Source: a virus (lineage: Duplodnaviria > Caudoviricetes). From it: a stretch of DNA of 64,000 nt. Location: IMG/VR virus record IMGVR_UViG_3300027759_000001. One strand, given 5' to 3'. A model generated the notes under the pieces. That model saw only the letters and a program-made list of their open reading frames with translations. It was not told the origin of the DNA and did not search any database. Shown here piece after piece: positions 1-39,438 of the stretch (position 1 is the first letter of the stretch; the number at the start of each line of letters is the position of its first letter). Position numbers and translations under genes: made by a program.

Positions 1-1368
1 ACTATTGAAGACTTTGAAGAAATTATTCCAAGAGCACTTAATACAGATAAAGAAAGACAACTTGGAGTTCCATTCAACATTTCGTGGGGTGGGGGTACTC
101 AAGGACTACATGAGAACTTAACTTTCTCATCAACAACTTATCCTTATAACAATTACATTCAGGATCCTGAATTATTCCCTGAGAATATTCTTAGTGGAAC
201 AACATTTGCGGGAATGAAAACAAATATTTTATTGGAACAAAATTTTGGTGGAACATTTGAGGGTGGTATATCTCAATTTAGAATGTATGTGACACCATTA
301 TCATCGGCTGAGGTTAAACATAATTTTAATATATTGAAAGGTACTTTTGATATGTTTGATTACGATTGTCCTGATTGTGATGTATTAGTTTGTGATGTAA
401 ATGATTTCACATATGAAATTGAAACAACAACTACAACTCATCCATTAATAACAACAACTACAACTCATCCATTAATAACAACAACCACCACGACAAATTT
501 AACAACAACAACTACAACACAAAATATTAATTGTCCTTATGTTTTTTTTATGAAACAAGGGAATAATTTGTGTTCTAATATTTATCAATATGACCCAATA
601 AATAATTTAGAAACTAATGTTACAGTTCCAAATTGTAGTACATACGGAGCCCCAACCGGGATAGCCAACACAAATACAAAATTATGGACAATTGATGGAA
701 ATACAAATAATATTACAGAATGGGATATTATAATGTCACCATTTAGTTCCAATTATGTTAAAACTATTACAACCTCAAACCCATTTGATTTTAGAACTAG
801 ATTTATATCTGCATATAGAGACCCTATAAGTGGTTTAGTTGACCCTAATTTTTTAATATCTTCGTCATCTTCAACTATTGTCCCACAATTAACTGAAATT
901 ATAAAAATTAATATTAGCGGTTTAAGTTGGACTAAAATTACTTTATTTAATTGGCCATCATCAATATATGATAATAGGATTATTAAAAAATTGATGATGA
1001 CAACAACTAATAAAATAATAATTTTAAATTATGATAGTCTTACTAGTGACCAATTTATAACCCAATTAGAGTATGTTGGGGGTATTTGGAGTTTAATGTT
1101 AGATGTTAATATTACAGTCTCAAGTGTAACATATGACACAATTTATCAAAATTCTTCATCTAATTATTTATTATCAGATAATATTCCTGCGGATGTTTAC
1201 AGTATTAACAATTCTTTTTCTAAAACTTTTATAGACCAATTAAATATATCTGGTGTGTATTTTTCATCTCAAGACCCAAATTGCGTTAATAATGAATTTA
1301 TTAATGGACCATTAGTTACACCAACTCCAACTCATCCATTAATAACAACAACTACAACAATAATATGA
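1..1368 (+). CDS. 5'-truncated large probable virion protein: end of a LamG/ConA-like domain, Cys motif, Thr-rich linker, beta-propeller-like domain, Thr-rich tail
   Basis: Frame 1 is open from base 1 ([22 protein letters not shown]...) into the tracked ORF at 214, so the true start lies left of the window. [24 protein letters not shown] resembles a LamG C-terminus. HPLITTTTT occurs three times. Confidence 0.6.
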
Positions 1369-1865
1369 GTAATTCAATAATTATAAAAAGTATAAATTAC
1401 GATGGTGAGGTTGCAAATATAATATTTAAACCTGACAATGATAATGTTGTAATTAATTTAGGTGATGTAACTTTACCTTGTACATTTAACCCTTCGTTGT
1501 TAATACCACCAAGAGAAATATATGGTACTTATACTATATTAGTATTAAACGATCAATGTCTTAATAGTGATTGTCCTTACATATTAAATGTTGTTAGACC
1601 AACTCCTACTCCAACTCCTACACCAACATTAACGTCAACTCCAACTAACACACCAACACCAACACCTACACCAACAGAAACAAAATATGTTTGTGTACCA
1701 ACACCAACAATCACGGTAACACAAACAATGACTTCAACACCAACGGCAACACCTCATCCGACGTGTACAAATCCGTGTGGTTGTCCATCACCAAGTAGAA
1801 CTCCTAAACCAACAAGGACACCAACACAAACTGCGACAAATGGGTATTGTCCAATACTACCGTAG
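1365..1865 (+). CDS. Probable virion decoration protein: adaptor domain A plus Pro/Thr-rich tail with Cys motifs
   Basis: ORF overlaps the previous stop. N-terminus ([19 protein letters not shown]...INLGDVTLP...YGTYTILV) aligns by eye with the N-terminus of 38347..39438; a PTPT repeat follows. Confidence 0.6.
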
Positions 1866-1886
1866 TTTGTTTTTTTATTATCAAAC

Positions 1887-1893
1887 TATTTAT
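1887..1893 (+). promoter_or_regulatory. TATTTAT motif, candidate late promoter
   Basis: 5 nt upstream of ATG 1899; the same heptamer recurs before many structural genes. Confidence 0.4.
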
Positions 1894-1898
1894 GGGAT

Positions 1899-2204
1899 AT
1901 GTTAATATTACAAATTGATGGTATAACAGGGGCTACCGCACCTTACAATTTATATGTCTGTGATGTCTATGGTAATCAATGTGCGGTTTTGGCAACAATA
2001 AATACTCCGATCCCACCATCAATAACATTAAACGTACCATCTCAATTTAATAATGTTCCAGCAATTGGTCTTAAAATCATTGATGTAAATGGTTGTGAAC
2101 AATTTGGAATCATCTATTGTGGAGATGTCAAGGGTAAAATATTCCAATCATCAGAGGTATTCTTATTCCAAGATGCAAATATTTATATTTTTGAGGACCA
2201 ATAA
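1899..2204 (+). CDS. Small Cys-containing probable structural protein (domain B)
   Basis: PYNLYVCD...C...KIIDVNGCE matches the N-terminus of 27337..29502 (PYNIYVCD...C...KIIDSRNCE). Confidence 0.6.
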   Translation: MLILQIDGITGATAPYNLYVCDVYGNQCAVLATINTPIPPSITLNVPSQFNNVPAIGLKIIDVNGCEQFGIIYCGDVKGKIFQSSEVFLFQDANIYIFEDQ

Positions 2205-2216
2205 TAACATTTTTAA

Positions 2217-2223
2217 TATTTAT
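2217..2223 (+). promoter_or_regulatory. TATTTAT motif, candidate late promoter
   Basis: 12 nt upstream of ATG 2236. Confidence 0.45.
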
Positions 2224-2235
2224 AAGTAAAAGGGG

Positions 2236-5200
2236 ATGCCGAATTATCAAAGACTTACGGATAGAGTATTAGCACCAAGTGTGTCTATAAATGATATTTT
2301 ACATATTGTTATTACAGGTGACACATCTCAAAACCCTGCTGGTTCATCTTATAAAGCCACATTAGAACAAGTTGCTTCAGTTATTGGTAGTGTTGGTACA
2401 TCAGGAACAAACGGTACAGATGGTACTTCAGGAACAAGCGGAGTGAATGGAACTTCAGGAACTAACGGATCAAGCGGAGCGAATGGAACTTCAGGAACTA
2501 ACGGTACTTCAGGAACTTCAGGAACTTCAGGGACGAGCGGAACTAACGGAACAAATGGAACGAATGGTACTAACGGAACTAATGGTACTTCAGGAACAAG
2601 CGGAGCAAACGGAACTTCAGGGACTAATGGAACAAGCGGAGCAAACGGAACTTCAGGAACTAATGGTACTAGTGGAACAAACGGAACGTCAGGAACTAAC
2701 GGAACAGATGGGTCTTCAGGTACAAATGGTACAAACGGAACGGATGGTACAAACGGAACTAATGGTACAAACGGAACGGATGGTACAGACGGAACAAGTG
2801 GTACTAATGGGTCTTCAGGGACTAACGGAACAAGTGGTACTAATGGGTCTTCAGGGACTAACGGAACAAGTGGTATATCGGGAGTAAATGGAACATCAGG
2901 TACAAACGGAACTTCAGGAACTAATGGTACAGATGGAACTTCAGGAACAAACGGAACAGACGGAACTTCAGGTACAAATGGAACAGATGGTACTTCAGGA
3001 ACAAACGGGACAGACGGAACTAGCGGAACAAATGGTACGGACGGTACTAACGGAACTAATGGTACGGACGGAACTTCAGGAACTAATGGTACGGACGGAA
3101 CTAACGGAACTAATGGTACGGACGGAACTTCAGGAACAAACGGGACAGATGGTACTTCAGGTACAAATGGTACAGACGGAACTAATGGAACAGATGGTAC
3201 TTCAGGAACTAATGGTACAGACGGAACTTCAGGTACAAATGGAACGGACGGAACTTCAGGTACAAACGGAACTGATGGAAGTAGTGGAACAAACGGAACA
3301 GACGGTACTTCAGGAACAAACGGAACAGACGGTACTTCAGGAACTAACGGAACAGATGGAAGTAGTGGTACAAACGGAACAGACGGTACTTCAGGAACAA
3401 ACGGAACAGACGGTACTTCAGGAACTAACGGAACTGATGGTACTTCGGGAACAAATGGTACTAGTGGAACAAATGGTACGAATGGTACATCAGGTACAAA
3501 TGGTACTTCAGGAACTAATGGTACTAATGGTACTAATGGAACTAACGGAACATCAGGTACCAATGGTACAAGTGGAACTAACGGAACGTCAGGAACAAAT
3601 GGCACAAACGGGACTTCAGGAACTAACGGTACTAATGGTACATCAGGAACAAATGGCACATCGGGAACAAACGGAACATCAGGAACTAACGGAACTGATG
3701 GTACTTCAGGAACTAACGGAACTGATGGGACTTCAGGAACTAACGGAACAGATGGAAGTAGTGGTACAAATGGAACGGATGGAAGTAGTGGTACAAATGG
3801 AACGGATGGGACTTCAGGAACAAATGGTACAGACGGCACTTCAGGAACAAATGGTACTGACGGAACTTCAGGGACAAATGGAACCAACGGTACGGACGGA
3901 ACTAATGGAACAGATGGTACTAGCGGAACAAATGGTACAGATGGAACAAACGGTACGGATGGGACTAGTGGCACAAATGGAACTGATGGTACTTCAGGCA
4001 CAAACGGAACAGACGGCACTTCAGGGACAAATGGTACAAATGGAACTGATGGTACTTCAGGTACAAACGGAACAGACGGCACTTCAGGGACAAATGGTAC
4101 AAATGGAACTGATGGGTCAAGCGGTACAAATGGAACTGATGGATCAAGCGGTACTAATGGAACTGATGGATCAAGTGGTACTAACGGCACTTCAGGAACT
4201 GACGGTACGGATGGGACTAGTGGAACAAATGGTACGGATGGAACTAGTGGAACAAATGGAACTGATGGTTCAAGTGGGACTAATGGAACGGATGGAAGTA
4301 GCGGAACAAATGGTACTGATGGTTCAAGTGGGACTAATGGAACGGATGGAAGTAGCGGAACAAATGGTACTGATGGTACTAGCGGAACAAATGGTACTAA
4401 CGGAACAGATGGAACTAGCGGAACAAATGGTACAGACGGAACTAATGGAACTAATGGTACAGACGGAACTAATGGAACAGATGGAAGTTCTGGAACAAAT
4501 GGAACGGATGGTACTTCAGGCACTAATGGAACGGATGGTACTTCAGGGACAAACGGAACAGATGGTACTTCAGGTACTAATGGAACAGATGGTACTTCAG
4601 GTACTAACGGAACGGATGGTACTTCAGGGACAAACGGAACAGATGGTACTAATGGAACGGATGGTACTAGCGGAACAAACGGAACAGATGGGACTTCAGG
4701 GACTAACGGTACTAATGGAACAAATGGTACTGACGGATCAAGTGGTACTAACGGAACAGATGGTACTTCGGGGACAAATGGAACAGATGGTACTAACGGA
4801 ACGGATGGTACTTCAGGGACAAACGGAACAGATGGTACTTCGGGGACAAATGGAACAGATGGTACTTCAGGGACAAACGGAACAGATGGTACTTCGGGGA
4901 CATCACCCTTAATTTGTACTCCATTCTTATCGGGAGATTATTATTTTCAATCGGTAGGCTCAATATACAACGGACCTTCATATCCAAATATGGCATGGGG
5001 TCCTGGTCAAACATTAAGTGTATACGCACCTGAAGGTGTTATAGAATATATGTTAATTACAGGTTATACCGCATCAACAGGTGCGATATCTGCGGTTATC
5101 ACATATTGTTCAAATGTTAATTACAAAACAACATCGGGTGTTAATCTTTGTCTTGTAGGTGAACAAGGAACATCTGGCACAAATGGTACTTCAGGGACAA

Positions 5201-8200
5201 ACGGAACAGATGGTACTAATGGAACTTCAGGGACTAACGGTACTGATGGTACGAATGGTACAGATGGTACAGATGGTACAGATGGTACTAGTGGTACAAA
5301 CGGTACGGATGGAACTAATGGTACCGATGGTACTAGCGGTACTAATGGAACAGATGGTACTAATGGTACTAGCGGTACTAATGGAACAGACGGAACTTCA
5401 GGTACTAATGGAACGGATGGTAGTTCAGGTACTAATGGTACAGATGGTAGTTCAGGTACTAATGGGACAAACGGTACAGACGGTACTTCAGGAACTAACG
5501 GTACAGATGGAACGTCAGGAACAAATGGTACAGACGGTTCAAACGGAACGGATGGTACTAGCGGAACAAATGGTACAGATGGAACAAGTGGGATATCTGG
5601 AGTAAATGGTACAAGTGGAACAAATGGTACTAACGGAACATCAGGAACTAACGGAACGGATGGTACTTCAGGAACAAACGGTACGGACGGAACCTCAGGA
5701 ACTAATGGTACAGATGGAACTTCGGGGACTAATGGTACAGACGGTACTTCAGGTACTAATGGAACTGACGGATCTTCAGGGACTAATGGAACAGATGGAA
5801 CATCAGGTACAAACGGAACAAATGGTACAAATGGAACAGATGGTTCAAGCGGAACTAATGGTACGGACGGAACTAATGGTACAAATGGAACAGATGGTTC
5901 AAGCGGAACGAATGGTACTGACGGAACAAATGGTACTGACGGAACCTCAGGTACAAACGGTACGGATGGAACTTCGGGTACTAATGGTACAGATGGTACA
6001 AACGGAACAGATGGTTCAAGCGGAACTAATGGTACGGACGGAACTAATGGTACAGATGGTACTAGCGGTACAAATGGTACTGATGGATCAAACGGTACGG
6101 ATGGAACTTCAGGTACTAATGGAACTGACGGAACAAGTGGTACTAATGGAACTTCGGGGACTAATGGAACAAGTGGTATATCGGGGGTAAATGGAACTTC
6201 AGGAACAAATGGTACTTCAGGTACAAATGGTACCAACGGAACAAATGGTACTTCAGGGACAAATGGTACTAACGGGACTTCAGGTACAAATGGTTCTTCA
6301 GGAACTAGCGGTGTTAATGGTATTTCAGGTGGAGCTGTTTATTTCTTTAACGAATCAGTAACACAAACACCATACAAAGAATTTTCACCTATACCGACAT
6401 CAGGGTCACAACAAACAGTTACGGTTACTATTGCGAATGGTGTAACATCAACTATTCAATCATATTTAACACCCTCAACTTATCCGAATGTATCAACCAT
6501 ACCTGCGGGAATTTGGTCTTTCTTCTTACACGCGTATAAAGAAAATAATAACGCATCTTTTGATATTTTTTGTGAAGTTTATTCAAGAACAACAGGTGGA
6601 ACGGAAACTTTATTATTTTCAACAGACCCAGCACCTGTAACAACAAATTCACCAAATCCATCAATGGTATTATCTGATGGATTTCAAGGAGGATTTTCAA
6701 TCAATACAACAGATAGGATATTAGTTAAAGTTCGAGCTACAAATACCTCAAATCAATCACATACAATTACTTTCGTAACCGAAGGTACAACTCATTATTC
6801 ATATGGTCAAACTACGTTAGGTGTAATTAATGGAACTAGCGGTACGAATGGAACCTCAGGTACAAATGGTACGAGCGGAACTAATGGTACTAACGGAACA
6901 TCAGGTACCAACGGAACATCTGGTACTAATGGTACAAACGGAACTAGCGGTACGAATGGTACATCAGGTACGAATGGTACCAACGGAACTAGCGGTACGA
7001 ATGGGACTTCAGGTACGAATGGAACAAATGGTACTTCAGGGACAAATGGTACTAACGGGACTTCAGGAACAAATGGATCAAGTGGAACTAATGGAACTTC
7101 GGGCACTAATGGAACATCGGGAACAAACGGTACGAATGGAACATCAGGTACGAACGGAACAAATGGAACGTCAGGAACAAATGGTACTTCAGGTACAAAT
7201 GGTACCAACGGAACAAACGGTACTTCAGGAACTAATGGTACGGACGGTACTTCAGGAACGAATGGTACTGATGGAACAAATGGTACTAGTGGAACGAATG
7301 GTACTAGTGGAACGAACGGAACCAATGGAACAAACGGTACTAGCGGAACTAACGGTACAAACGGAACTAACGGTACAAACGGAACTAATGGTACAGACGG
7401 AACTAGCGGTACAAATGGAACTAATGGAACTAATGGAACAAACGGAACTTCGGGAACTAATGGAACATCAGGAACTAATGGAACTAATGGAACTAATGGA
7501 ACGTCGGGAACAAATGGTACGAATGGAACTAGCGGTACTAACGGTACATCGGGTACAAATGGAACTAACGGAACATCAGGTACAAATGGTACTAACGGAA
7601 CATCAGGTACTAACGGAACATCAGGTACAAATGGAACCAACGGAACGTCAGGAACAAATGGAACCAACGGTACTAGCGGAACTAACGGGACTAATGGAAC
7701 ATCAGGAACAAACGGAACATCAGGTACAAATGGTACTAGTGGTGTAAGTGGAGCGTCTGGTACTTCAGGAACAAACGGAACAAATGGTACAAACGGAACC
7801 TCAGGAACTAACGGAACAAATGGAACTTCAGGAACAAATGGCACAAACGGAACCTCAGGAACTAACGGAACAAATGGAACTTCAGGAACTAACGGAACTA
7901 ACGGTACAAATGGAACTTCAGGTACAAATGGAACTTCAGGTACGAATGGGACATCAGGAACCAATGGAACCAACGGTACAAACGGAACCTCAGGAACTAA
8001 CGGTACTAATGGATCAAGCGGTACCAACGGGACATCAGGTACGAATGGAACTAATGGGACATCAGGTACGAATGGAACTAATGGGACATCAGGTACGAAT
8101 GGAACTAATGGGACAAACGGAACGTCAGGGACTAATGGTACCAATGGAACTTCAGGTACTAATGGAACAAACGGAACATCAGGAACAAATGGTACCAACG

Positions 8201-9651: not shown

Positions 9652-9704
9652 AATCAATCTTTCATTTAATTTTTCTTTTTAGATAATAAAGTTTACTTAA
9701 CTAA

Positions 9705-9711
9705 TATTTAT
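9705..9711 (+). promoter_or_regulatory. TATTTAT motif, candidate late promoter
   Basis: 56 nt upstream of ATG 9768. Confidence 0.35.
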
Positions 9712-9767
9712 TTAATAACAAATAAATCAAAGGATTTTCTTTTGGATAGGGAAAAAAGAAAAAATAG

Positions 9768-23222: not shown

Positions 23223-23234
23223 CTATTTATATAT

Positions 23235-23501: not shown

Positions 23502-23541
23502 TTTATCTTTATTTTAATATTTCATATTTTATATTTAACAT

Positions 23542-24468: not shown

Positions 24469-24497
24469 TTAATGATATTTATTGTTAAACAACAATA

Positions 24498-26066: not shown

Positions 26067-26083
26067 AATATAATTAAATTAGT

Positions 26084-27322: not shown

Positions 27323-27336
27323 ATTAAAAGAATTTA

Positions 27337-30812: not shown

Positions 30813-30815
30813 AAT

Positions 30816-31529: not shown

Positions 31530-31535
31530 AAAAAT

Positions 31536-32078: not shown

Positions 32079-32088
32079 AAATAAAATT

Positions 32089-32871
32089 ATGAAAAAAAAA
32101 ATAGCAGTTATATCAGGTTGGTATAACTTTGGGGAAAATAACGGAATTAGTGATGACAATAGGTTTATGACTAATTGTTTTTATGAAAGTGCAAAAAAAC
32201 ACTTTTTACCTCATCACGATGTTGAATTTATTTTTATGAACAATAGTGATATCACAATAGATGGGGTAACAAATATAAATTTTGATTATCAAATTGAGGG
32301 GTTTTGGGAAATGTGTTTAATGAAAATTTTAAGTTTAAAATTTTTAAAAAACGAATATGACTATATATTTGTTCATGATAATGATCAAGTTTACATTAAA
32401 GACGTAAATAACAAAATATTAGAATCTGATTTTACATTTGTGGACCATTTTTATCCATCACCCGTTAAGGATATTTACGAACAAGTAACAGATATAGTAG
32501 AACTAAACTTCAACACATCTGAAGAAAAATGGACTATGGGTAATTTTTTTGGTGGAAAACAAAAAAATATGATGGAGTTATTATCAATAACTGAAGAACA
32601 AAATAAAAAATATTTTGGTTATAATTTTAATCAAAATTATTTTTATTCAAGGTATCCTGAAGAACTTTTTATTGTTAAATATGTTTATGAAAATAATATT
32701 AACCATAAAAGGCTTAATACGTGTGTACATCCATTACAATCTGAGGGGGAATATTTTTTAAGCGATTGGGGTGATGATGATTCGGTTCCTTTTGAGGTTA
32801 CAAACGTAAATTTATTACACAACACTAAAAAAAATTTAAATAAATTAAGAAAATTATATAAACAAAATTAA
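32089..32871 (+). CDS. Divergent GT6-like (ABO/alpha-1,3-Gal(NAc) transferase-like) glycosyltransferase
   Basis: FYESAKKHFL.HHDVEFIF, YDYIFVHDND (DxD), GNFFGG, YPEELF..KY in place of WHDESHLNKY. Confidence 0.55.
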   Translation: MKKKIAVISGWYNFGENNGISDDNRFMTNCFYESAKKHFLPHHDVEFIFMNNSDITIDGVTNINFDYQIEGFWEMCLMKILSLKFLKNEYDYIFVHDNDQVYIKDVNNKILESDFTFVDHFYPSPVKDIYEQVTDIVELNFNTSEEKWTMGNFFGGKQKNMMELLSITEEQNKKYFGYNFNQNYFYSRYPEELFIVKYVYENNINHKRLNTCVHPLQSEGEYFLSDWGDDDSVPFEVTNVNLLHNTKKNLNKLRKLYKQN

Positions 32872-32880
32872 AAAAATTAT

Positions 32881-34218
32881 ATGGAAGAAAATAAAAAAAT
32901 AGTTATAGCACAATTTTTTACCACTAACCTTAGTTATGGTAAATTTACAAAAGAAATAAATAAAAAGTATTGTGATGAAAAAGGATACATATATCATTTA
33001 GAGTCCGACAATAATAAAATAAAAACTGCATTAGAAGGTAGATCCCCAACATGGTATAAACCAAAATTTATTAATGAGGTTTTTGAGTTATATAATCCTG
33101 ATTACATTCTTTTTTTAGATGCAGATGCGATAGTATGTGATTTTAGTTATAAAGTGGAAGATTTTATTGATTCAGATTATAATATTATATGTACCGAAGA
33201 TTATGGACCTAGTAAATTAAATGCTGGTGTTTTCATAATGAAAAATTCAGATTGGACAAAACGAGTAATGAATAAATGGTGGGAGACAGGTAATAATTTA
33301 GTTGGAGGACCAAATAATGAAATGGGGTTCTATAAAACGGGATTATGGCACGATCAAACTTGTTTCGGACATTTAATGGATATTATGCCCGATTCTAAAA
33401 CAAACATTAAATTAATAACTAATAAAGTATTAAACGGTAGAGAGTATAAAAATAACGTAGATAAAAATTTTATATTTCACGCCTTCTCTTATGGTATGTT
33501 ACCAAATAGAACCATTGATAAATGTTATTACGACATCTTCAATATAGATATCCCTGATGGTGAAAAATTATCTGATATTGTAGAATATTACGATACGGAT
33601 AAACATTATGAACATAATTATTTAAGATTAATTTACGATGATTTATTTCTTCCCATACGAGAAGAAGTTAAAACTTTTGTTGAGATAGGTGTGAATCATG
33701 GAGGATCTATTTTAATGTGGAGAGATTATTTTAAAAACTCAAAAGTTTTAGGGTTAGATAATAATTTACCTTTCTGTGAAGAAAAATTAAGAGATAAAAA
33801 TTTAGATCGTATTGAATTAATTAATCTTGACCAATCAATTCCTGAAATGTTAGAAACATTTGCAAACCAATATAGTGACATTGATGTTATATTAGAAGAT
33901 GGTTCACATAGAATGCACGATCAACAAATCACATTAGCAAAATTATTTAAAACATTAAAGTCAGGGGGGATATATGTACTTGAGGACTTACATACTAGTT
34001 TAGAGGCTCCGATGCCTGAAAAGGCTTGGTGTGGGTGGGGAGACTCAACAAAAACATTAACCTTAGATATGTTAAACAATTTCATATCAACGGGCAAAAT
34101 ACAATCCGATTATTTAACGGAAGATGAGATTAATTATTTAAATGATAATATTTTATCTGTAGAGATATATCAAAATAGACCCGATTGGAGTATAACAAGT
34201 GTAATAATAAAAAAATAA
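32881..34218 (+). CDS. GT34/GMA12-MNN10-like glycosyltransferase fused to a class I SAM sugar O-methyltransferase (MycE/TylE-like)
   Basis: W.KP..I...YILFLDADA...LNAGVFI.KN..W...WHDQ, then DK...H.Y...EIGV..GGS..MWRDYF....LGLD...EDGSH...GG.YVLED. Confidence 0.7.
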   Translation: MEENKKIVIAQFFTTNLSYGKFTKEINKKYCDEKGYIYHLESDNNKIKTALEGRSPTWYKPKFINEVFELYNPDYILFLDADAIVCDFSYKVEDFIDSDYNIICTEDYGPSKLNAGVFIMKNSDWTKRVMNKWWETGNNLVGGPNNEMGFYKTGLWHDQTCFGHLMDIMPDSKTNIKLITNKVLNGREYKNNVDKNFIFHAFSYGMLPNRTIDKCYYDIFNIDIPDGEKLSDIVEYYDTDKHYEHNYLRLIYDDLFLPIREEVKTFVEIGVNHGGSILMWRDYFKNSKVLGLDNNLPFCEEKLRDKNLDRIELINLDQSIPEMLETFANQYSDIDVILEDGSHRMHDQQITLAKLFKTLKSGGIYVLEDLHTSLEAPMPEKAWCGWGDSTKTLTLDMLNNFISTGKIQSDYLTEDEINYLNDNILSVEIYQNRPDWSITSVIIKK

Positions 34219-35180
34219 TGATAGGTATAGTTCACCACACATTTCTTACAGGTAACTGGCAAGAAATATTAAATTCCCAAATAGAAAGACTTATATCTTC
34301 TGGGTTATATGACAACGCAGATATTATATGGTTTACTTGTAATTTAAATGGAAATGATGAAAATGTATTCACCGACTTTCTTAAAGATTACAATAAAATA
34401 CAAACCGAATGTCATGTTAATAATGGAGCTGAATACCCTGGTATTCATAAAGTAAAAGAATTAGGTGATAACAATGAGGACATGAAGATCCTTTATTTTC
34501 ATGGTAAAGGAGTTAGTAATACATATACAAATAACGAAACTAAAGAAGTTAATGAAGATAAAGTAAAAAATATACAATCATGGAGAGAGTGTTTGGAATA
34601 TTTTGTCATTGATAAATGGAAAGATTGTGTTGATAAATTAGACGAATATGATAATGTTGGTGTTACTTGTAATGGTGGTTGGTATTGGGGTAACTTTTGG
34701 TGGTCACAATCTAAACACATAAAAAAATGTAGACCCGTTGATTATTGGGGTAGGTGGGATTATGAAGCTTGGTTAAATTCGTATGTGGAAAATCAAACTA
34801 ATTATGAATTTTTTAAATTTACGTATAACCCATATGTTACTATTATACATGAGGATTGGTATAAAAAAATAAGAACTGAAAATGACCCAATTAAAATAAC
34901 GGTATTAAATGCATTTTATGGTACCCCTCCATTTGAAATTGATGAGGGTTATTCAAATATTCCATTAAATGTTACGGAAGATGTTAAGAGTGTAATAGAA
35001 GAAAAATTGAAGGAACAGAATAATGAAAAATTTTATTTTCCCGTTAATAACGAATCTATGGGTTGTGACCCATCACCTGGAAATAGAAAGTTTTTATTTA
35101 TTGAATTTTATTTAAGTAACAGTAATAACATTTATAAATTAGGACTTCATGAAGGGATGTTCTTTGACCAAAAATTTTAA
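34218..35180 (+). CDS. Putative glycosyltransferase (YFHGKG...GNFWW family) with a C-terminal SUEL-like lectin domain
   Basis: Start moved to ATG 34218 (TAATG overlap with the previous stop). ILYFHGKG, GNFWWS; C-terminus LNAFYG...DV...MGCDPSPG.RKFLFIEF. Confidence 0.5.
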   Translation: MIGIVHHTFLTGNWQEILNSQIERLISSGLYDNADIIWFTCNLNGNDENVFTDFLKDYNKIQTECHVNNGAEYPGIHKVKELGDNNEDMKILYFHGKGVSNTYTNNETKEVNEDKVKNIQSWRECLEYFVIDKWKDCVDKLDEYDNVGVTCNGGWYWGNFWWSQSKHIKKCRPVDYWGRWDYEAWLNSYVENQTNYEFFKFTYNPYVTIIHEDWYKKIRTENDPIKITVLNAFYGTPPFEIDEGYSNIPLNVTEDVKSVIEEKLKEQNNEKFYFPVNNESMGCDPSPGNRKFLFIEFYLSNSNNIYKLGLHEGMFFDQKF

Positions 35181-35189
35181 AAAATAATT

Positions 35190-37550
35190 ATGGAAGATTT
35201 TTTTGACAAGGTTTTACACTACTATGGTAGAAAAGGTGAAAAACTATTTATGATTAACATTGGTGCAATGGACGGTGTTTTATTTGATAGTATGAGTGGT
35301 TATGCGGATATGTATAATTCAGATGTGTTATATGTGGAACCAATGAAACCTCACTTTGACAGATTGGTTAAACATAAAGGAGGTAACCCAGCTAATAAGT
35401 TTGAGAACTCCGCAATTAGTAACTACAACGGAACTATAAACATGAAAACAATTCCAATTGAGATTGTTGATCAAGGATTAGTTCATCAAGCATTTTATGG
35501 TATGAGCGTTATTGACCCAACAAAGAATGGTATGGGTAGTGAAGGAGATAGAGAAGTTGTTGAGAAGTATGCCGTAGATGTTGAGGTTAATTGCATTACT
35601 TGGGATACGTTAGTTAAAAAACACGATATAGATTATTTTGATGTATTATCTGTAGATACGGAGGGACATGACTATACAATATTCAAACAAATTGATTTAG
35701 AAAAATTTAGACCTATTTTAATACGTTTAGAATGGTGTAATATGACAGACGAAGAAAAAACTAACATCCTTAATAAATTTACCTCATCAGGATATGTTTA
35801 TGAAATTTTGGATAATATGGATATTGATGCGGTTAGAGAAGATGTGTATGAAGAAATAAAGTCAAAATTAGAACCAAAACAAATAATTGAAACCTCAAAC
35901 TCAAAACTTACATTAGTGACAGGTCTTTGGGATATTGGAAGAGGTGACCTTCAAGAAGGGTGGTCTAGATCATTTCAACATTATTTAGATAAATTTCAAC
36001 AACTATTACAGGTTGATGTGAATATGATAATATTTGGAGATAAAGAATTAGAAGAATTTGTATTAAACAATAGAAGTAGTGAAAACACACAATTTGTAAT
36101 CAGGGATTTATCTTGGTTTAAAAATAATGATTTTTATGATAAAATACAAAAGATAAGAACTAACCCTGATTGGTATAATCAAATTGGTTGGTTAACAAAT
36201 TCTACACAAGCTAAATTAGAAATGTATAATCCTTTGGTAATGTCCAAAGTTTATCTTTTACACGATGCAAAGATTTTAGATAAGTTTGATTCAGAATATA
36301 TGTTTTGGATTGATGCTGGTTTAACAAATACAATTCATCCAGGATACTTCACTCAAGATAAAGTTTTAAATAAATTACCTCAATTGGTTAAGAATTTTCA
36401 CTTTGTTTGTTTCCCTTATGAAACAAATAGTGAAATACATGGATTTAAATATCAAGAGTTGTGTGATTTAGCGGGTAAACCTGTTAATATGGTTGCTAGA
36501 GCTGGTTTCTTTGGTGGAAAAAAAGATGTTATTTCTGAAATCAATAGTATATACTATGGATTAATGAACGATACTTTATCACAAGGGTTAATGGGAACTG
36601 AAGAGTCGTTATTTACAATTATGACCTACAAATATCCTAATTTAATAACGTATTCCGAAATAGAAAATAATGGTTTGATGGGTAAATTTTTTGAGGATTT
36701 AAAAAATATGACGGTTGAAACTAAAATTAATGATATTGGTAGTGAGATAGGATTATATGTTATTACGTTTAATTCACCAAAACAATTTGAGACTCTAATT
36801 GAGTCAATGTTAGACTACGATCCATCATTCGTAACTAAAACTAAAAAATATTTACTTAATAACTCAACAGATTTAACGACAACCGAAAGATATATTCAAC
36901 TATGTAACCAATATGGGTTTGAACATATTAAAAAAGATAATATTGGTATAACAGGTGGAAGACAATTTATTGCTGAACATTTTAATGAACAAAATAATTT
37001 AAGTCATTATTATTTTTTTGAGGATGATATGTTTTTTTATAATGGGGGAGATATAACTTGTAAAAATGGATTTGTTAGAAAAATAAAAAACATATTTGAC
37101 AACACATTAAAAATAATAAAAGAAGAAAATTTTGATTTTTTAAAGTTAAACTTTAGTGAATTTTATGGTAGTCACAATAAACAATGGGCTTGGTATAATG
37201 TTCCACAATCTTTCAGAGAATCCCATTGGGTAAACAATCCAAGATTACCCGAACATGGTTTGGATGCTAACTCACCTAATTTAGAATTTAAACACATAAA
37301 ATCTTATAATGGAATACCATATGCTACAGGTGAAATTTATTTGTGTAACTGGCCAATAGTCATGTCAAAAGAAGGTAATTACAAATGTTATCTTAAAACA
37401 AAATATGGTATGCCTTATGAACAAACTCTTATGTCCCATTGTTATCAAGAAATGGTAAAGGGTAATATAACGGGTTCTGTATTACTTTCAACACCAACTG
37501 ATCACAATAGATTTGATTTTTATGATGGTAATTTGAGAAAAGAATGTTAA
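35190..37550 (+). CDS. Three-domain enzyme: FkbM-like methyltransferase + HtrL/YibB-like glycosyltransferase + GT2-like domain
   Basis: IGAMDG...VEP...VDTEGHD; TLVTGLWDIGR...WIDAG...FFGG...GTEE; VITFNSP...FFEDDM. Confidence 0.65.
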   Translation: MEDFFDKVLHYYGRKGEKLFMINIGAMDGVLFDSMSGYADMYNSDVLYVEPMKPHFDRLVKHKGGNPANKFENSAISNYNGTINMKTIPIEIVDQGLVHQAFYGMSVIDPTKNGMGSEGDREVVEKYAVDVEVNCITWDTLVKKHDIDYFDVLSVDTEGHDYTIFKQIDLEKFRPILIRLEWCNMTDEEKTNILNKFTSSGYVYEILDNMDIDAVREDVYEEIKSKLEPKQIIETSNSKLTLVTGLWDIGRGDLQEGWSRSFQHYLDKFQQLLQVDVNMIIFGDKELEEFVLNNRSSENTQFVIRDLSWFKNNDFYDKIQKIRTNPDWYNQIGWLTNSTQAKLEMYNPLVMSKVYLLHDAKILDKFDSEYMFWIDAGLTNTIHPGYFTQDKVLNKLPQLVKNFHFVCFPYETNSEIHGFKYQELCDLAGKPVNMVARAGFFGGKKDVISEINSIYYGLMNDTLSQGLMGTEESLFTIMTYKYPNLITYSEIENNGLMGKFFEDLKNMTVETKINDIGSEIGLYVITFNSPKQFETLIESMLDYDPSFVTKTKKYLLNNSTDLTTTERYIQLCNQYGFEHIKKDNIGITGGRQFIAEHFNEQNNLSHYYFFEDDMFFYNGGDITCKNGFVRKIKNIFDNTLKIIKEENFDFLKLNFSEFYGSHNKQWAWYNVPQSFRESHWVNNPRLPEHGLDANSPNLEFKHIKSYNGIPYATGEIYLCNWPIVMSKEGNYKCYLKTKYGMPYEQTLMSHCYQEMVKGNITGSVLLSTPTDHNRFDFYDGNLRKEC

Positions 37551-37556
37551 TTGCAA

Positions 37557-37563
37557 TATTTAT
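37557..37563 (+). promoter_or_regulatory. TATTTAT motif, candidate late promoter
   Basis: 14 nt upstream of ATG 37578, directly after the GT operon. Confidence 0.45.
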
Positions 37564-37577
37564 TGTAAAATCAAATA

Positions 37578-38300
37578 ATGGAATTTTACATTAAGAAAAA
37601 TGCTACGTTACCCGTTTTAAAGATGCAAGTCGTTAAAGACGGTAGAAGTGATTATAATAAGATGATGGAAATGATTGAGGAATCTTCTATCTTCTTTTCA
37701 ATGGTAGATACTGAGACTGGAATTCCAAGAATTGTTACAAGACCCGCAGGATTTGTTGAGAAAACATTATTGGACCCAAATGCTGAGTATGAGTATTATG
37801 TTTATTATCAGTTCACATCAAATGATACAAGAAAAGTTGGTAGATATGAAGGTCAGTTCTTATTAAGAAATTCAGATGGCACATTAATTTTACCAATCAG
37901 AGAAAAACTTTATATAAACGTACAAGAAAGTTTCATTGCGGATGATCTTCCGTATGAATCTTGTTATGTTGTTGGTTTCCCTTGTTGTGCTAGTATACCT
38001 ACAACAACTACAACCACAACAACACCTTGTCCTAGTTGTAGGGCTTGTTGCCCACCAACTCCAACACCATTACCGACAACAACAACTACTACATATATAC
38101 CAATCACAACAACAACAACAATCCACAATGATTTTGTTGTTTTAGACATACCAGAAAATGATGTAAACTTTGGTTTAGTAATAACTAATTTAGTTCCTAT
38201 AGAAATACCTGAAGATGATGTAAACTTTGATTTGGTTATTACAAATTTAGTCCCTATAGAAATACCTGAAGATGATGTAAACTTTGATTTAATAATTTAA
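37578..38300 (+). CDS. BppU-like Ig-fold structural protein with Cys/Thr linker and acidic 19-aa repeats
   Basis: YIKKNATLP.L...Y.F...DT...GRYEGQF...LPI.E.LYINV; then PTTTTTTTTPC; then repeats. Confidence 0.55.
   Translation: MEFYIKKNATLPVLKMQVVKDGRSDYNKMMEMIEESSIFFSMVDTETGIPRIVTRPAGFVEKTLLDPNAEYEYYVYYQFTSNDTRKVGRYEGQFLLRNSDGTLILPIREKLYINVQESFIADDLPYESCYVVGFPCCASIPTTTTTTTTPCPSCRACCPPTPTPLPTTTTTTYIPITTTTTIHNDFVVLDIPENDVNFGLVITNLVPIEIPEDDVNFDLVITNLVPIEIPEDDVNFDLII
38148..38297 (+). repeat. 57-nt tandem repeat (about 2.6 copies) encoding IPE(D/N)DVNF(D/G)LVITNLVPIE
   Basis: Copies start at 38148, 38205 and 38262. Confidence 0.85.
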
Positions 38301-38346
38301 AATTATAAGATATTTATAAATAAAAATAAAAAGAAAAATAAAAAAA

Positions 38347-39438
38347 ATGATACAAGGAATAAGAATTACAAGTCAAAATTTATCGGGGGATACCGCTAAT
38401 GTTACTTTTAACCCACAAACGGGTGGTACAATTAATTTAGGTACACAAACAATACCTTTTAATAATATCACAAATTATCCTTATGGTACTTATGAATTAT
38501 TTGTACCTGAATTTAATTACACATATGATGTAATTGTCCCAGCCCCGCAAAATGGTCAGGATGCATATACGACAACAGTTAGAGACGTTACAATAGATGG
38601 TGGATTAAAACCATTCTCAGGAGCGGTATTATCTGAAGTATGGGGGACATATACAACTGATTATATTACAAATCAAGGAATACCATCAACATCTATTGTT
38701 TTAGCTGAAGGTATTTGTTCTGATGATGTTGACGCATCAAAAGTACCATCAAATATTGGTCAATGGCCAAATAGTATTAATTCGTTTTTAGGTCCATTTA
38801 TGTCAGGTGGATTAGCGGGATATCCATTTGTGGGTAGTGTTGGTTTTGGGGCATTTGCAAGTCACGTAGCAACAAGTGGTGCTACCGAAACAAATGCCAC
38901 TTTATTTGTTACGAGTATGCCACATATTGGTGTGACTGAAGATGGTCGTTCAGGAAGAATGTTACGTAGAGGTAAAGCTGATAGTATAACAGATAATACT
39001 TGTGGTGCAGTTTGGGGAGCAATTAACCAAGTTGTAAATGTTTTATCAGCACCTCCAAGTCAAAGTAATCCACCATTTGATAATGGTAATTATTCTTTTT
39101 GGAAGTTAACAGATATTTTATGGCCATTTAAAAACGTATTATCAGGATTTACAGGAACTAGTGAGGAAATATATAATAAACAAATGATTTTTGCGACAGA
39201 AACAATTAGAGATGCCGCATATGATTATATTATTGATGTTTTACCAAGTCAAGTGACGGGTAACACACAAAACGATGTATATTTTTTAAGTGGTATTTTT
39301 ATCAATACTGATGTTATTCCTGACAGTACATTACAATTTGAATCTTATGTTGTTGTTGATAAAGTTATGAAATATGAATTTGGTATTGGTTGGAGTGATA
39401 TTACCATTAGTTATAACACTGGATTACCAATTGACTAA
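38347..39438 (+). CDS. Adaptor domain A fused to an LCIB/LCIC-type beta-carbonic anhydrase domain
   Basis: ICSDD, F.SGGLAGYPF.G..GFGAF.SHV, PHIGV...G..G...RRG, TCGA. The Cys/His/Cys zinc ligands are all present. Confidence 0.7.
   Translation: MIQGIRITSQNLSGDTANVTFNPQTGGTINLGTQTIPFNNITNYPYGTYELFVPEFNYTYDVIVPAPQNGQDAYTTTVRDVTIDGGLKPFSGAVLSEVWGTYTTDYITNQGIPSTSIVLAEGICSDDVDASKVPSNIGQWPNSINSFLGPFMSGGLAGYPFVGSVGFGAFASHVATSGATETNATLFVTSMPHIGVTEDGRSGRMLRRGKADSITDNTCGAVWGAINQVVNVLSAPPSQSNPPFDNGNYSFWKLTDILWPFKNVLSGFTGTSEEIYNKQMIFATETIRDAAYDYIIDVLPSQVTGNTQNDVYFLSGIFINTDVIPDSTLQFESYVVVDKVMKYEFGIGWSDITISYNTGLPID

Follow-up and report, generated by a model that had tools for sequence, protein, structure and literature searches.

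Organization of the island

Does a phage that sets glycosyltransferase (GT) genes among genes for Ser/Thr-rich repeat proteins glycosylate its own particle? The question is posed by an uncultured freshwater jumbo phage, of which a stretch of 64,000 nucleotides (the window) was analysed. About 38 kb of it is given to soluble sugar-adding and methylating enzymes, whose genes are interleaved with those of giant proline-free Gly-Thr-Asn/Ser fibres and Thr/Pro-rich stalk proteins. Nine genes encode 9 supported GT domains, 2 GT leads and 4 methyltransferase domains (Pfam, NCBIfam, PDB and fold matches), in line with the eight genes and about 10 GT and 4 methyltransferase domains of the initial annotation. 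The 'at least eight' Thr/Ser-rich repeat proteins reported there were recovered as eight products in positions 1-39438 with a Ser/Thr-dense tract, defined as at least 40% Ser/Thr over 30 residues (1-1368, 1365-1865, 2236-9651, 9768-16700, 16712-17551, 26084-27181, 27337-29502 and 37578-38300). Beyond 39438, such tracts occur in the tail sheath (49053-52394) and in the product of 56953-61995. Recognisable myovirus structural genes (sheath, gp19 tube and T4 baseplate; Pfam) lie at 49-64 kb, separated from the island by genes for PolB, SOD and an SNF2 helicase. The island, which had been placed inside the structural region, is beside the core tail module.

Two separable systems make up the island: A, a four-domain enzyme with a TibC/Aah-type (BAHT) domain together with the fibres, and B, a GT60 module. 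Judged from sequence, the best reading, to which we give a probability of roughly 0.6, is that these two systems O-glycosylate the fibre and stalk proteins of the phage itself, in the cytoplasm.

Giant fibres and the four-domain enzyme

System A and the genes around it are as follows.

1 to 1368, plus strand: partial ORF, open at its 5′ end; residues 131-189 form a poly-Thr tract and the C terminus a Thr tail
1365 to 1865, plus strand: small protein with a conserved 76-residue N-terminal domain and a variable Thr/Pro tail (tract at residues 71-152)
2236 to 9651, plus strand: 2,471-residue proline-free collagen-like (Gly-Thr-Asn/Ser/Asp)n protein with short non-repeat inserts
9768 to 16700, plus strand: (Gly-Thr-Asn/Ser)n fibre of 2,310 residues, its N-terminal domain tail-fibre-like and its C-terminal tip globular
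16712 to 17551, plus strand: protein with about 175 residues of Thr/Pro repeats, ending in a Cys-rich domain
17587 to 21246, minus strand: four-domain enzyme, GT2, GT4, TibC/Aah-type and FkbM (Pfam, NCBIfam, PDB)
21236 to 22192, minus strand: 318-residue protein of no clear family, its gene sharing its last 11 nt with the beginning of the four-domain enzyme gene
22251 to 23222, plus strand: fibre-type protein with a C-terminal LamG/concanavalin-like lectin domain (Pfam Laminin_G_3, 1e-23)
23542 to 24468, plus strand: GT9-family glycosyltransferase, 308 residues (Pfam Glyco_transf_9, 1.7e-15)
24498 to 26066, plus strand: fibre-type protein with weak SPRY and fibrinogen-C-like matches (Pfam)
26084 to 27181, plus strand: fibre-type protein with an N-terminal domain, a Pro/Thr linker (about 117-165) and a legume-lectin-like C-terminal domain

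The 2,471-residue product (composition G29 T28 N15 S12) matches Pfam Collagen with 895 bits, and its C terminus is 78% identical in contig L166. This independent contig carries a 2,397-residue Gly-Thr-Asn/Ser ORF that is homologous at both termini and is a homologue of the 2,310-residue fibre, and ORFs of 1,700-3,100 residues are present on other contigs; the giant repeat genes are therefore not an artefact of one assembly. The N terminus of the 2,310-residue fibre matches PHROG families annotated as baseplate and as unknown, and in two distant phages (L175, L176) its C-terminal domain family lies 2 kb ahead of the genes for sheath, tube and baseplate. Among the smaller products, the partial ORF has no match in Pfam or PHROG, its N-terminal part being 66% identical to part of a 1,167-residue ORF in L101. 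The 76-residue domain of the next protein recurs in 28 of 80 GT60 loci (median identity 60%) with tails of varying length, and the Cys-rich domain of the Thr/Pro repeat protein holds its position between fibre and BAHT gene in L164, L165, L166 and L195.

The four-domain enzyme gene lies tail-to-tail with the two genes for (Gly-Thr-Asn/Ser)n fibres of 2,300-2,500 residues. Its product consists of GT2 (residues 1-130), GT4 (about 440-600), a TibC/Aah-type protein O-heptosyltransferase domain (about 655-990) and an FkbM methyltransferase (about 1040-1180). The third domain scores 288.7 bits with the NCBIfam equivalog TIGR04414, whose cut-off is 200, and aligns to TibC (PDB 4RAP) with E 2e-72; by sequence it is a true member of the BAHT family, in agreement with the initial annotation's call of a protein-directed enzyme. 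Compared with the functional residues of TibC (PMC4358343), and counted on the 4RAP alignment, it keeps Asp110, Thr226, Lys230, Trp305 and all four iron-finger cysteines, with Arg286 replaced by Val and Pro300 by Gly. Since Arg286 binds sugar in TibC, the donor may not be heptose. BAHT-bearing relatives are mostly devoid of ADP-heptose pathway genes, which counts against the glycosylation reading as a whole.

The overlapping 318-residue product gave no match in Pfam, PHROG or NCBIfam and no clear family in a language-model search. It is 88% identical at the same position in L181 and L182, and weakly resembles a segment within the BAHT multi-domain protein of Microcystis phage Mel-JY01 (24% identity, E 6e-6). 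The LamG-type protein matches PHROG 8510 'virion structural protein' (1e-15), and its gene has a TATTTAT motif 21 nt upstream. The GT9 protein shows weak, nearly equal matches below cut-off to the TibC/Aah and lipopolysaccharide (LPS) heptosyltransferase models of NCBIfam, and is conserved beside the BAHT gene in L164, L181, L188 and L218 (68-90% identity, with synteny). The two fibre-type proteins that follow have a common N-terminal domain (sequence; overlapping tblastn matches), and the lectin assignment of the second rests on a Lectin_L-type_dom match of 5.5e-7, under the Pfam cut-off.

Linkage of BAHT genes to Ser/Thr-rich fibres

A G-X-Y ORF lies within 10 kb of the BAHT gene in 43 of 79 IMG/VR BAHT loci; for sheath loci the count is 0 of 80, for GT60 loci 11 of 80. 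Many of the loci counted are close relatives. With the BAHT loci clustered at 90% identity the pairing is seen in 23 of 38 clusters, and at 75% in 11 of 19; the 36 of 79 BAHT loci that have no fibre are often, not always, on incomplete contigs. Among five large relatives, G006 alone exceeds the BAHT family cut-off and alone has a collagen-like ORF, the two being adjacent. In all 39 distinct BAHT-linked fibres Ser plus Thr fill 64-98% of the X/Y positions and Pro 0-5%. The linkage of enzyme to Ser/Thr-rich protein spans many divergent phages, well outside the window.

Each Asn of the (Gly-Thr-Asn)n repeats falls in an N-X-T sequon, as N-linked glycosylation of phage proteins would need. Hydroxyproline in the Thr/Pro tracts could likewise be an O-linked target, since Gnt1, a characterised GT60 enzyme, acts on hydroxyproline. 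In BAHT-linked fibres of other phages, however, the Y position is 87-98% Ser and Asn is not conserved, while Ser/Thr is always kept, and Pfam detected no GT41/HMW1C-type N-glycosyltransferase, oligosaccharyltransferase or prolyl hydroxylase family in the window. We regard such other linkages as improbable. Modification of host proteins such as surface adhesins, as TibC modifies TibA, would suit a family known from bacterial adhesin systems only. It is the most improbable of the alternatives, as no autotransporter is encoded in the window (Pfam) and the enzyme travels with fibre genes across very different phages, presumably of different hosts. O-glycosylation of the fibres by System A has its own difficulty: TibC acts on Ser, not Thr, in a β-helix acceptor, and the candidate acceptor here is a repeat quite unlike it.

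The GT60 module

System B follows directly on the plus strand.

27337 to 29502, plus strand: 721-residue mucin-like protein, a 150-residue N-terminal domain followed by Thr-X repeats
29565 to 30812, plus strand: GT60-family glycosyltransferase, candidate initiator (PF11397, 244 bits, 3.4e-72)
30816 to 35180, plus strand: strain-variable tailoring cassette (Pfam and language-model (Atlas) leads), with the five genes below
30816 to 31529, plus strand: GT92/GT2-like (Pfam)
31536 to 32078, plus strand: FkbM methyltransferase (Pfam)
32089 to 32871, plus strand: GT6-like, a lead from the language model only
32881 to 34218, plus strand: GT34 and Methyltransf_24/CmcI (Pfam)
34185 to 35180, plus strand: DUF8361-like, a lead from the language model only
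35190 to 37550, plus strand: FkbM methyltransferase fused to a tandem GT-A enzyme (HtrL_YibB and a second GT-A)
37578 to 38300, plus strand: small BppU-like protein with an Ig-like BppU-N-type domain (1-138), a poly-Thr/Cys/Pro tail and three 17-residue repeats

The assignment to GT60 is beyond doubt, again in agreement with the protein-directed call. Searches gave 448 related IMG/VR contigs and, separately, more than 7,000 related proteins; all 7 large clade records examined carry the gene, and it was found in none of 14 control cellular genomes. The Thr-X repeats of the preceding protein cover 574 residues to the C terminus (42% Thr), and no terminator-like site was found between the two genes. 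Its N-terminal domain is conserved in the ORF immediately 5′ of GT60 in 49 of 80 loci, and in 57 of 71 loci the ORF at this position has at least 16 Ser/Thr per 40 residues, a density reached by 18% of all ORFs in these loci.

Downstream, the locus has a glycan-like architecture in which the end genes are kept and the middle genes differ among strains. The cassette GT92 and FkbM genes of the window occur in 0 of 80 related loci; cassettes range from 0 to 8 genes, and those of relatives hold GT25, GT10, GT2, CmcI, GNAT and DegT in their place. The co-variation of GT number with Thr-repeat load anticipated by the initial annotation did not appear, inspection of the listing giving no visible trend of cassette size with upstream ORF length or Ser/Thr density. 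Residues 238-786 of the 35190-37550 product are conserved in 77 of 80 loci, and its model (pLDDT 65) matches the two-GT-A enzymes R699 (Mimivirus), LH3, COLGALT1, LARGE1 and K4CP with E 1e-8 to 1e-10. The N-terminal domain of the BppU-like protein is found in 71 of 80 loci, the Thr tail in some only; its fold matches TP901-1 BppU (Z 8.6 and 8.1) and the phage 80alpha baseplate (Z 8.3), with antibody domains nearly tied, and its BFVD matches bear the names BppU, minor tail and baseplate.

Xanthomonas jumbo phage XacN1 (AP018399), grouped with Xoo-sp13 and Stenotrophomonas phages CM1 and RAS14, shares the gene order of GT60 (ORF334, 45% identity, LDSH motif conserved), a variable cassette and the tandem GT-A enzyme (ORF330, 43%), with GT9 close and PolB near. 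Its cassette has a carbamoyltransferase, which the listing for the window lacks; its neighbouring giant protein ORF325 (3,313 residues) is neither mucin- nor collagen-like, and no BAHT match was found in its record. Virions of this cultured phage were reported in 2018 to contain at least 2 glycoproteins, and the authors proposed the phage GTs as the cause (PMC5852040). The earlier suggestion that glycosylation on this scale was new among described phages was therefore too strong.

PolB adjoins the module here and in XacN1, an arrangement that would also fit a role of the module in building glycans on hydroxymethylated phage DNA bases. Phage GT-A enzymes that modify DNA are commonly near polymerase and sugar-tailoring genes (preprint 10.1101/2023.12.21.572611), and a thymidylate-synthase-family protein, which could be a hydroxymethylase, is present in 5 of 5 large relatives. 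These ThyA-family genes are, however, distant from the GT60 module (in G002, 31 kb versus about 196 kb). GT60 has no known DNA-acting member, Ser/Thr-tract proteins flank the module on both sides, and the glycoproteins of XacN1 are in its virions; no Tet/JBP match was obtained, with the control for that family also silent. We consider DNA modification rather improbable, by a shade less so than the other protein linkages above.

Shared upstream motif and solubility

Of the 8-mers made only of A and T, ATATTTAT ranks first ahead of genes, where 14 of its 22 copies lie. Copies stand before the sheath and tube genes and before those of both giant fibres (20 nt from 2236-9651), of the Thr-X protein (22 nt from 27337-29502) and of the BppU-like protein (22 nt from 37578-38300); another lies 23 nt before the fibre-type gene at 24498-26066. 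The sheath, identified by Phage_sheath_1C and Phage_sheath_1 (Pfam), is a certain virion protein and bears the same kind of tract as the island proteins.

49902 to 50015, plus strand: Thr/Pro tract within the tail sheath (residues 284-321 of the 49053-52394 product)

Membrane segments were found in no island enzyme or repeat protein. Peripheral LPS transferases likewise have none, and GT2, GT4, GT9, GT25 and HtrL_YibB are typical of LPS and polysaccharide loci, so that the transferases might instead remodel host envelope glycans (LPS, capsule or other polysaccharide), for example to block superinfection, with the tracts as unglycosylated spacers. The variable cassette does resemble an O-antigen locus, and GT clusters of unknown role are frequent in large phages (PMC12619734). 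We nevertheless consider this unlikely. For the two enzymes with the clearest assignment, the family members characterised so far modify polypeptides; Pfam found no flippase, polymerase, ligase, oligosaccharyltransferase or priming phosphotransferase in the window, which has no lipid-carrier machinery; and the recurrent adjacency of BAHT to proline-free Gly-Ser/Thr fibres and of GT60 to Ser/Thr-rich ORFs would be left unexplained. Domain identities, conserved catalytic residues, solubility, cross-phage gene linkage and the common upstream motif are direct observations.

Proposed pathway

We infer acceptors, sugars, order of steps, virion location and coat function as follows. In System A the TibC/Aah-type domain would put the first sugar on fibre Ser, possibly Thr, while the fibre is being synthesised in the host cytoplasm. 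Extension of the chain would fall to GT4 and GT2 of the same polypeptide and to the adjacent GT9, and its methylation to the fused FkbM domain. In System B, GT60 would start a HexNAc-type chain on Thr of Thr/Pro tracts, the candidate acceptors being the upstream 721-residue protein, the insert in the sheath and small structural proteins through their Thr tails. The strain-variable transferase/methyltransferase cassette would tailor this chain and the conserved tandem GT-A enzyme would add to it further. Against this reading, many proteins carry unglycosylated Pro/Thr linkers. Donor sugars would be mostly host-derived; as first noted, nucleotide-sugar synthesis enzymes have no Pfam match anywhere in the window. 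The virion glycan coat originally proposed is partly supported by the initiator identities, solubility, cross-phage linkage and upstream motif, and its single system gives way to two.

Relation to known systems

TibC/TibA and Aah/AIDA-I of E. coli (TIGR04414; 4RAP, 4RB4; PMC4358343) offer the closest parallel to the BAHT domain: both are soluble cytoplasmic GT-B enzymes, Asp110 is kept, as are three of the four residues that bind sugar and the iron finger with its four Cys, and the gene is likewise beside a highly repetitive, hydroxyl-rich acceptor candidate. The phage domain differs in sharing its polypeptide with three others (GT2, GT4 and FkbM), and its presumed acceptor is a proline-free Gly-X-Y fibre where theirs is a β-helical autotransporter.

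For System B, CAZy GT60 includes polypeptide α-GlcNAc-transferases of Dictyostelium and Trypanosoma cruzi. The phage enzyme is of the same Pfam family (PF11397), keeps the Asp-Ser-His motif and has Thr-rich mucin-like candidate acceptors, but is soluble, has an extra C-terminal region and is predicted to act in the bacterial cytoplasm.

In mycobacteriophages, as far as the account in PMC12619734 of Freeman et al. 2023 goes, soluble phage-encoded GTs, of other families, are thought to modify Ser/Thr-rich structural-protein extensions in the cytoplasm. Acceptors in that case are the short tails at the C termini of capsid and tail-tube proteins, whereas the candidates in the window are dedicated fibres of thousands of residues, and the gene set is far larger. 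Mimivirus fibrils and chlorovirus capsids acquire methylated and unusual sugars by virus-encoded, host-independent cytoplasmic glycosylation (PMC9614988, PMC9546862, PMC12279948). Mimivirus resembles the window in having collagen-like genes together with dedicated transferases, and its R699, among the top fold matches of the tandem GT-A enzyme, shows only a common tandem GT-A architecture (TM about 0.25). Both are eukaryotic giant viruses, however, and Mimivirus collagen is glycosylated via hydroxylysine. BclA of the Bacillus anthracis exosporium is a collagen-like Gly-X-Thr filament bearing an O-linked oligosaccharide with a terminal methylated sugar, and forms a hair-like nap (PMC6222408, PMC10050317); unlike the window fibres its repeats are Pro-rich (GPT) and about 10 times shorter, and it is bacterial and served by other transferases.

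Glycosylation of phage virions was known before this case, with the report on XacN1 dating from 2018 (PMC5852040). Because protein-directed enzyme families and methylating enzymes interleave here with Ser/Thr-rich fibres and stalks, this phage probably sugar-coats its own particle. Its glycoprotein fibres would then have a brush-like build and a glycan that varies from strain to strain; with the repeats in a collagen-type helix, their length would come to about 0.6 micrometre.

Enzymes and repeat proteins of the island

Profile searches and one structural model of the island identified nine supported glycosyltransferase (GT) domains and four methyltransferase domains, and a tract scan of positions 1-39438 found Ser/Thr-dense tracts in eight proteins. 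The initial annotation had described GT and methyltransferase genes interleaved with at least eight Thr/Ser-rich proteins, and both searches agree with it. It had also put the island inside a myovirus structural region; in fact it is a neighbour of the recognisable tail genes, from which replication genes separate it.

Enzyme domains of the island, with the evidence for each
17587-21246, minus strand: GT2, GT4, GT9-fold and FkbM domains in one 1,219-residue chain (profile search)
23542-24468: GT9 (profile search)
29565-30812: GT60 (PF11397, 244 bits; profile search)
30816-31529: GT92/GT2-like (profile search)
31536-32078: FkbM (profile search)
32881-34218: GT34 and CmcI-type methyltransferase (profile search)
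35190-37550: FkbM and HtrL_YibB (profile search)
32089-32871: GT6-like, a lead (language-model look-alike alone)
34185-35180: DUF8361-like, a lead (language-model look-alike alone)

System A denotes the four-domain enzyme at 17587-21246, which contains a bacterial autotransporter heptosyltransferase (BAHT) domain, and two giant fibres (2236-9651 and 9768-16700). System B denotes the GT60 gene, a variable cassette (30816-35180), the tandem GT-A enzyme at 35190-37550 and a BppU-like protein (37578-38300). Membrane segments were absent from the island enzymes and repeat proteins, and Pfam searches of the window gave no match to flippase, polymerase, ligase, priming transferase or oligosaccharyltransferase families. 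The reading that we favour, at a probability of about 0.6, is that these two modules would O-glycosylate the phage's own fibres and stalks in the cytoplasm.

Giant fibres

The two giant fibres (2,471 and 2,310 residues) are built of Gly-Thr-Asn/Ser/Asp triplets, and in the 2236-9651 product the Gly-X-Y periodicity is uninterrupted (PF01391, 894.7 bits). By composition, Pro is not among the commonest residues of either fibre, and the helix-stabilising Pro/Hyp-rich X/Y feature of collagen is absent; 'collagen-like' is used here as a label for the periodicity alone, not for a triple helix. The 721-residue Thr-X protein (27337-29502), encoded directly upstream of GT60, is 42% Thr, and like tracts are found in two further proteins, the tail sheath (49053-52394; residues 284-321) and the 56953-61995 product, which is 1,680 residues long. 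PHROG searches gave almost no yield for the repeat proteins.

An independent contig (L166) encodes a 2,397-residue homologue in a single frame with matching N and C termini, and further contigs carry ORFs of up to 3,100 residues, which indicates that the giant genes are not an assembly accident. Many short-read contigs stop just past the neighbouring enzyme gene, as expected where a repeat is hard to assemble. The C-terminal tip domain of the fibre recurs in distant phages, where the genes for sheath, tube and baseplate follow 2 kb downstream of it; this location supports a tail-fibre role.

Over the two giant genes (2001-16000) G+C is 0.40-0.45, compared with 0.26-0.35 elsewhere, and AT and GC skew are strongly positive, which follows simply from the recurring Gly-Thr-Asn/Ser codons. 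Other frames of the repeats are open as well, giving long spurious ORFs. Three consecutive fibre-type proteins are encoded at 22251-27181, with C-terminal domains of LamG, SPRY/fibrinogen-like and legume-lectin-like type respectively. The last two share a clear common N-terminal domain and the first begins similarly; the three look like swappable receptor-binding or glycan-binding heads.

The BAHT enzyme of system A

The BAHT domain (residues 655-988) scored 288.7 bits against NCBIfam TIGR04414, for which the equivalog cut-off is 200, and matched the sequence of the TibC crystal structure, 4RAP, with an E-value of 2e-72. The Aah/TibC-type, protein-directed enzyme named in the initial annotation is thus present. 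Functional residues of TibC, as defined in PMC4358343, were read off the 4RAP alignment. The catalytic base Asp110 is kept (TLGDLLGW in TibC aligned with SLGDTMAW), as are all four iron-finger cysteines, 339, 342, 358 and 370 (CHGC ... WCP ... FEC and CYGC ... WCP ... FEC). Among the sugar-binding residues, Thr226, Lys230 and Trp305 are kept and Arg286 is replaced by Val, by manual count on the alignment; the stereoselectivity residue Pro300 is Gly in the phage enzyme. At the thumb tip, which bears on the dodecameric ring assembly of BAHT enzymes, Phe265 and Val266 are replaced by Tyr and Met. Because of the changes at Arg286 and Pro300, the donor may differ from ADP-heptose. Searches of five large relatives for donor pathways found NTP_transferase in 0/5, a GmhA-type SIS gene in 1/5, small cytidylyltransferase-like genes in 2/5 and two epimerase/dehydratase genes in 2/5, so that these relatives appear to show no consistent route to ADP-heptose or another donor.

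The acceptor type known for BAHT is an autotransporter beta-helix modified on Ser, and Pfam matched no autotransporter family in the window. The four-domain enzyme is best classed among BAHT-fold relatives, its presumed acceptor being a different one, the Gly-Ser/Thr-X fibre. Its gene lies tail-to-tail with that of the second giant fibre, and the order fibre, Thr/Pro-Cys protein, BAHT enzyme, GT9, lectin-type fibre is retained where the BAHT proteins are merely 51-72% identical. The enzyme is modular: some relatives lack the GT2 domain or have another methyltransferase, and the Microcystis phage Mel-JY01 (L162) encodes a 1,226-residue version with other partners. Beside the BAHT gene of Mel-JY01, two ORFs at positions 1-2298 have products that are 30-33% Pro and also contain Val, Glu and Leu, a repeat protein of another kind than the Gly-Ser/Thr fibres.

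A scan of IMG/VR for the BAHT domain yielded 79 loci, many of them mutually related, and a G-X-Y ORF lay within 10 kb in 43 of the 79, compared with 0/80 sheath-centred and 11/80 GT60-centred loci. After clustering of the BAHT sequences the pairing was seen in 23 of 38 clusters at 90% identity and in 11 of 19 at 75%. Among the five large relatives, the sole BAHT match above the family cut-off was in the sole carrier of a collagen-like ORF, with the two genes adjacent. A literature search joining heptosyltransferase, collagen-like and phage found no paper.

All 39 distinct paired repeats have Ser or Thr at 64-98% of X/Y positions and 0-5% Pro, and the repeat moves from Gly-Thr-Asn/Ser near the window phage to Gly-Ser-Ser in distant phages. 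Across the pairs Asn varies and Ser/Thr is constant, which favours O-linkage over the use of Asn-Gly-Thr sequons. Linkage through hydroxyproline or Asn is a very improbable alternative; the enzyme families that it requires were not matched in the window by Pfam. For O-linked glycans, Ser at the Y position would be the likeliest first acceptor in the fibre, since TibC is described in the literature as acting on Ser and not on Thr.

The GT60 module of system B

The GT60 domain scored 244.3 bits against PF11397 (gathering score 21), in keeping with the initial annotation, and a phmmer search of PDB sequences gave no match. The GT-A metal-binding motif (Asp-x-His) is present as LDSH, invariant in 22 aligned sequences that include the cultured Xanthomonas jumbo phage XacN1. 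GT60 was found in 448 related contigs and in more than 7,000 database proteins at 75-95% identity; it was present in 7/7 large clade records examined and in 0/14 control cellular genomes.

Over 80 loci the gene order is fixed: a Ser/Thr-rich ORF, GT60, zero to eight small genes, the tandem GT-A enzyme (77/80), a 138-residue domain (71/80) and PolB. In 57 of 71 loci the ORF immediately before GT60 reaches 16 or more Ser/Thr per 40 residues, compared with 18% of all ORFs there. For the phage GT60 a polypeptide acceptor (Thr or Hyp) and a UDP-GlcNAc donor, as in the family, are putative, and the one indication is the adjacency of its gene to these Ser/Thr-rich ORFs. The initial annotation had raised the prospect that GT number co-varies with Thr-repeat load; no trend was visible between cassette size and how long or how Ser/Thr-dense the upstream ORF is, as judged by eye over loci of which many are near-duplicates.

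Enzymes that remodel host envelope glycans would account for the LPS-type GT families of the island, but not for two protein-directed initiators, and they would leave the recurrent adjacency to Ser/Thr repeats unexplained; we regard this explanation as unlikely. Glycan hypermodification of phage DNA would suit a module placed next to PolB, and there is a literature on such pathways. It is nevertheless quite improbable here, as Pfam searches of the window matched neither a hydroxymethylase (ThyS-type) nor a 5-methylpyrimidine dioxygenase, and the ThyA-family gene of relatives lies far from the GT60 module. A Tet_JBP search in relatives gave no match, but as control genomes were equally silent it is uninformative.

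For O-glycosylation of the phage's own proteins, the cassette would be the variable part. The middle genes of the window, GT92 and FkbM, occur in 0/80 loci, and the cassettes of other strains contain GT25, GT10, GT2, GT34, CmcI-type methyltransferases, a GNAT acetyltransferase and a DegT sugar aminotransferase. Conserved ends with a variable middle are the architecture of a glycan locus that is apparently under diversification. In one relative (L135:11255-12282) the first cassette genes after GT60 encode a GNAT acetyltransferase and a DegT-type sugar aminotransferase, which suggests that some strains produce their own N-acetylated amino sugar.

A structural model of residues 238-786 of the 35190-37550 product (pLDDT 65) matched Mimivirus R699, LH3, COLGALT1, LARGE1 and K4CP with E-values of 1e-8 to 1e-10; as these are two-domain GT-A enzymes, the product holds two GT-A domains. 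The 138-residue domain has an Ig-like sandwich fold. It matched TP901-1 BppU (Z 8.6 and 8.1) and the 80alpha baseplate (Z 8.3), with antibody domains nearly level (Z 7.7-8.1), and its BFVD matches (E 1e-4 to 1e-5) are named BppU, minor tail or baseplate. Because antibody domains score almost as high, this is a moderate indication of a BppU/baseplate-like protein. The domain bears a poly-Thr tail in the window phage and some relatives, and no such tail in others. After the poly-Thr/Cys/Pro tail of the BppU-like protein, a 17-residue unit (VITNLVPIEIPEDDVNF type) is repeated about three times at 38120-38300. Systems A and B are adjacent in the window and in some relatives (L182, L188) and about 114 kb apart in another, G007, and are therefore separable modules.

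Upstream motif and possible co-transcription

The most upstream-biased AT-only 8-mer of the window is ATATTTAT, with 22 copies, 14 of which lie no more than 80 nt upstream of same-strand starts, ahead of 13 genes. It precedes both giant fibres, the Thr-X protein, the BppU-like protein, the sheath and the tube; example sites are 2216, 24475, 27315, 37556, 49008, 53377 and 54914. We interpret it as a strong promoter-like word. The T4 late promoter word TATAAATA, with 17 copies against 12 expected, was not significant, and ATATTTAT was taken instead. Scans for sigma-70 promoters and terminators were at or below shuffle level.

No ATATTTAT copy belongs to the GT60 operon itself, and the terminator scan, which was at or below shuffle level, gave no site between the Thr-X gene (27337) and this operon; co-transcription of the two is plausible. 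Metatranscriptome libraries from four studies contain short contigs that match parts of the GT operon at 99-100% identity. DNA carry-over is possible, so these contigs are no proof of transcription, and gaps in their coverage carry no meaning. Contigs in metatranscriptome libraries also join 30812/32899 and 29646/32563, leaving out 2.1 and 2.9 kb of the cassette respectively. The 30812/32899 junction matches the gene order of a relative (L083) in which GT60 is followed directly by the GT34-methyltransferase gene, and the junction contigs look like co-occurring strain variants with other cassettes.

Phage lineage

The source is an uncultured tailed phage. Profile searches of the window recognised a tail sheath of 1,113 residues, a gp19-type tube and a T4-type baseplate protein, together with a family B DNA polymerase, an SNF2 helicase, an Fe/Mn superoxide dismutase and an LCIB-type carbonic anhydrase. 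Among cultured phages, the polymerase has only distant matches. Hundreds of relatives were found in IMG/VR, including records of 215-304 kb with CheckV completeness of 73-100%, and near-identical DNA occurs in freshwater and sediment metagenomes from more than 10 studies. Together these data indicate that the source is a widespread freshwater jumbo myovirus lineage.

Moraphage identity was considered and dropped. Lysine-tRNA ligase is a near-core moraphage marker, present in 24/28 genomes (PMC12619734), and PF00152 was found in 0/5 large relatives, with 14/14 controls positive; the clade therefore probably belongs outside the moraphages of that study.

The superoxide dismutase (43846-44934, minus strand) has an N-terminal extension of about 165 residues with no family assigned, is preceded by ATATTTAT, and is about 70% identical in relatives. 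The carbonic anhydrase (38347-39438, plus strand; LCIB/theta type, PF18599, 1.7e-27) has a Thr/Gly-rich N-terminal extension and ATATTTAT ahead of it, with homologues in some relatives (L123, L135).

Comparison with known systems

To our knowledge, glycosylated phage particles are known from few cases, with small acceptor tails. In mycobacteriophages Ser/Thr extensions are glycosylated, as summarised in PMC12619734. The window likewise combines phage GTs with Thr tails (on the BppU-like protein and the 1365-1865 product) and a Thr/Pro insert in the sheath. XacN1 has GT60 (45% identity) and the tandem GT-A enzyme (43%) in the same order as the window, near its PolB, with a different cassette between them. 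The study that described XacN1 found at least two glycoproteins in its virions and suggested that the phage GTs make them (PMC5852040). Phage virion glycosylation itself is thus already known, and what is notable here is the scale, the enzyme families and the wide distribution.

Overall, the virion glycan coat proposed in the initial annotation is supported in part. A collagen-type rise is 0.286 nm per residue. A bolder reading, which we hold tentatively at somewhat less than even odds, is that of a true viral glycocalyx, in which fibres of up to about 0.6 micrometre (assuming a collagen-type rise, and a proline-free repeat may not adopt that helix) of Gly-Ser/Thr-X repeats, together with Thr/Pro stalks, would be densely O-glycosylated in the bacterial cytoplasm by TibC-type and GT60-type initiators, with a strain-specific, methyl-capped glycan from the swappable cassette. 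Such a coat would be found in a very abundant freshwater jumbo phage clade and many unrelated large phages, and would be a counterpart, under diversifying selection, of Mimivirus fibrils and the Bacillus exosporium nap. As XacN1, with a GT60 system, and Mel-JY01, with a BAHT enzyme, are in culture, the reading is directly testable.

If it is correct, soluble single-chain enzymes that initiate, extend and methylate, with simple repeat acceptors, would be available for glyco-engineering. Enzyme types of E. coli adhesins and protist mucins would have a second life in viruses. The GT60 gene has thousands of variants in metagenomes, and heavy, strain-variable protein glycosylation would be common in large aquatic phages. 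A glycan coat could alter adsorption, aggregation, grazing, enzyme attack and particle size, and thereby how phages are filtered and counted.
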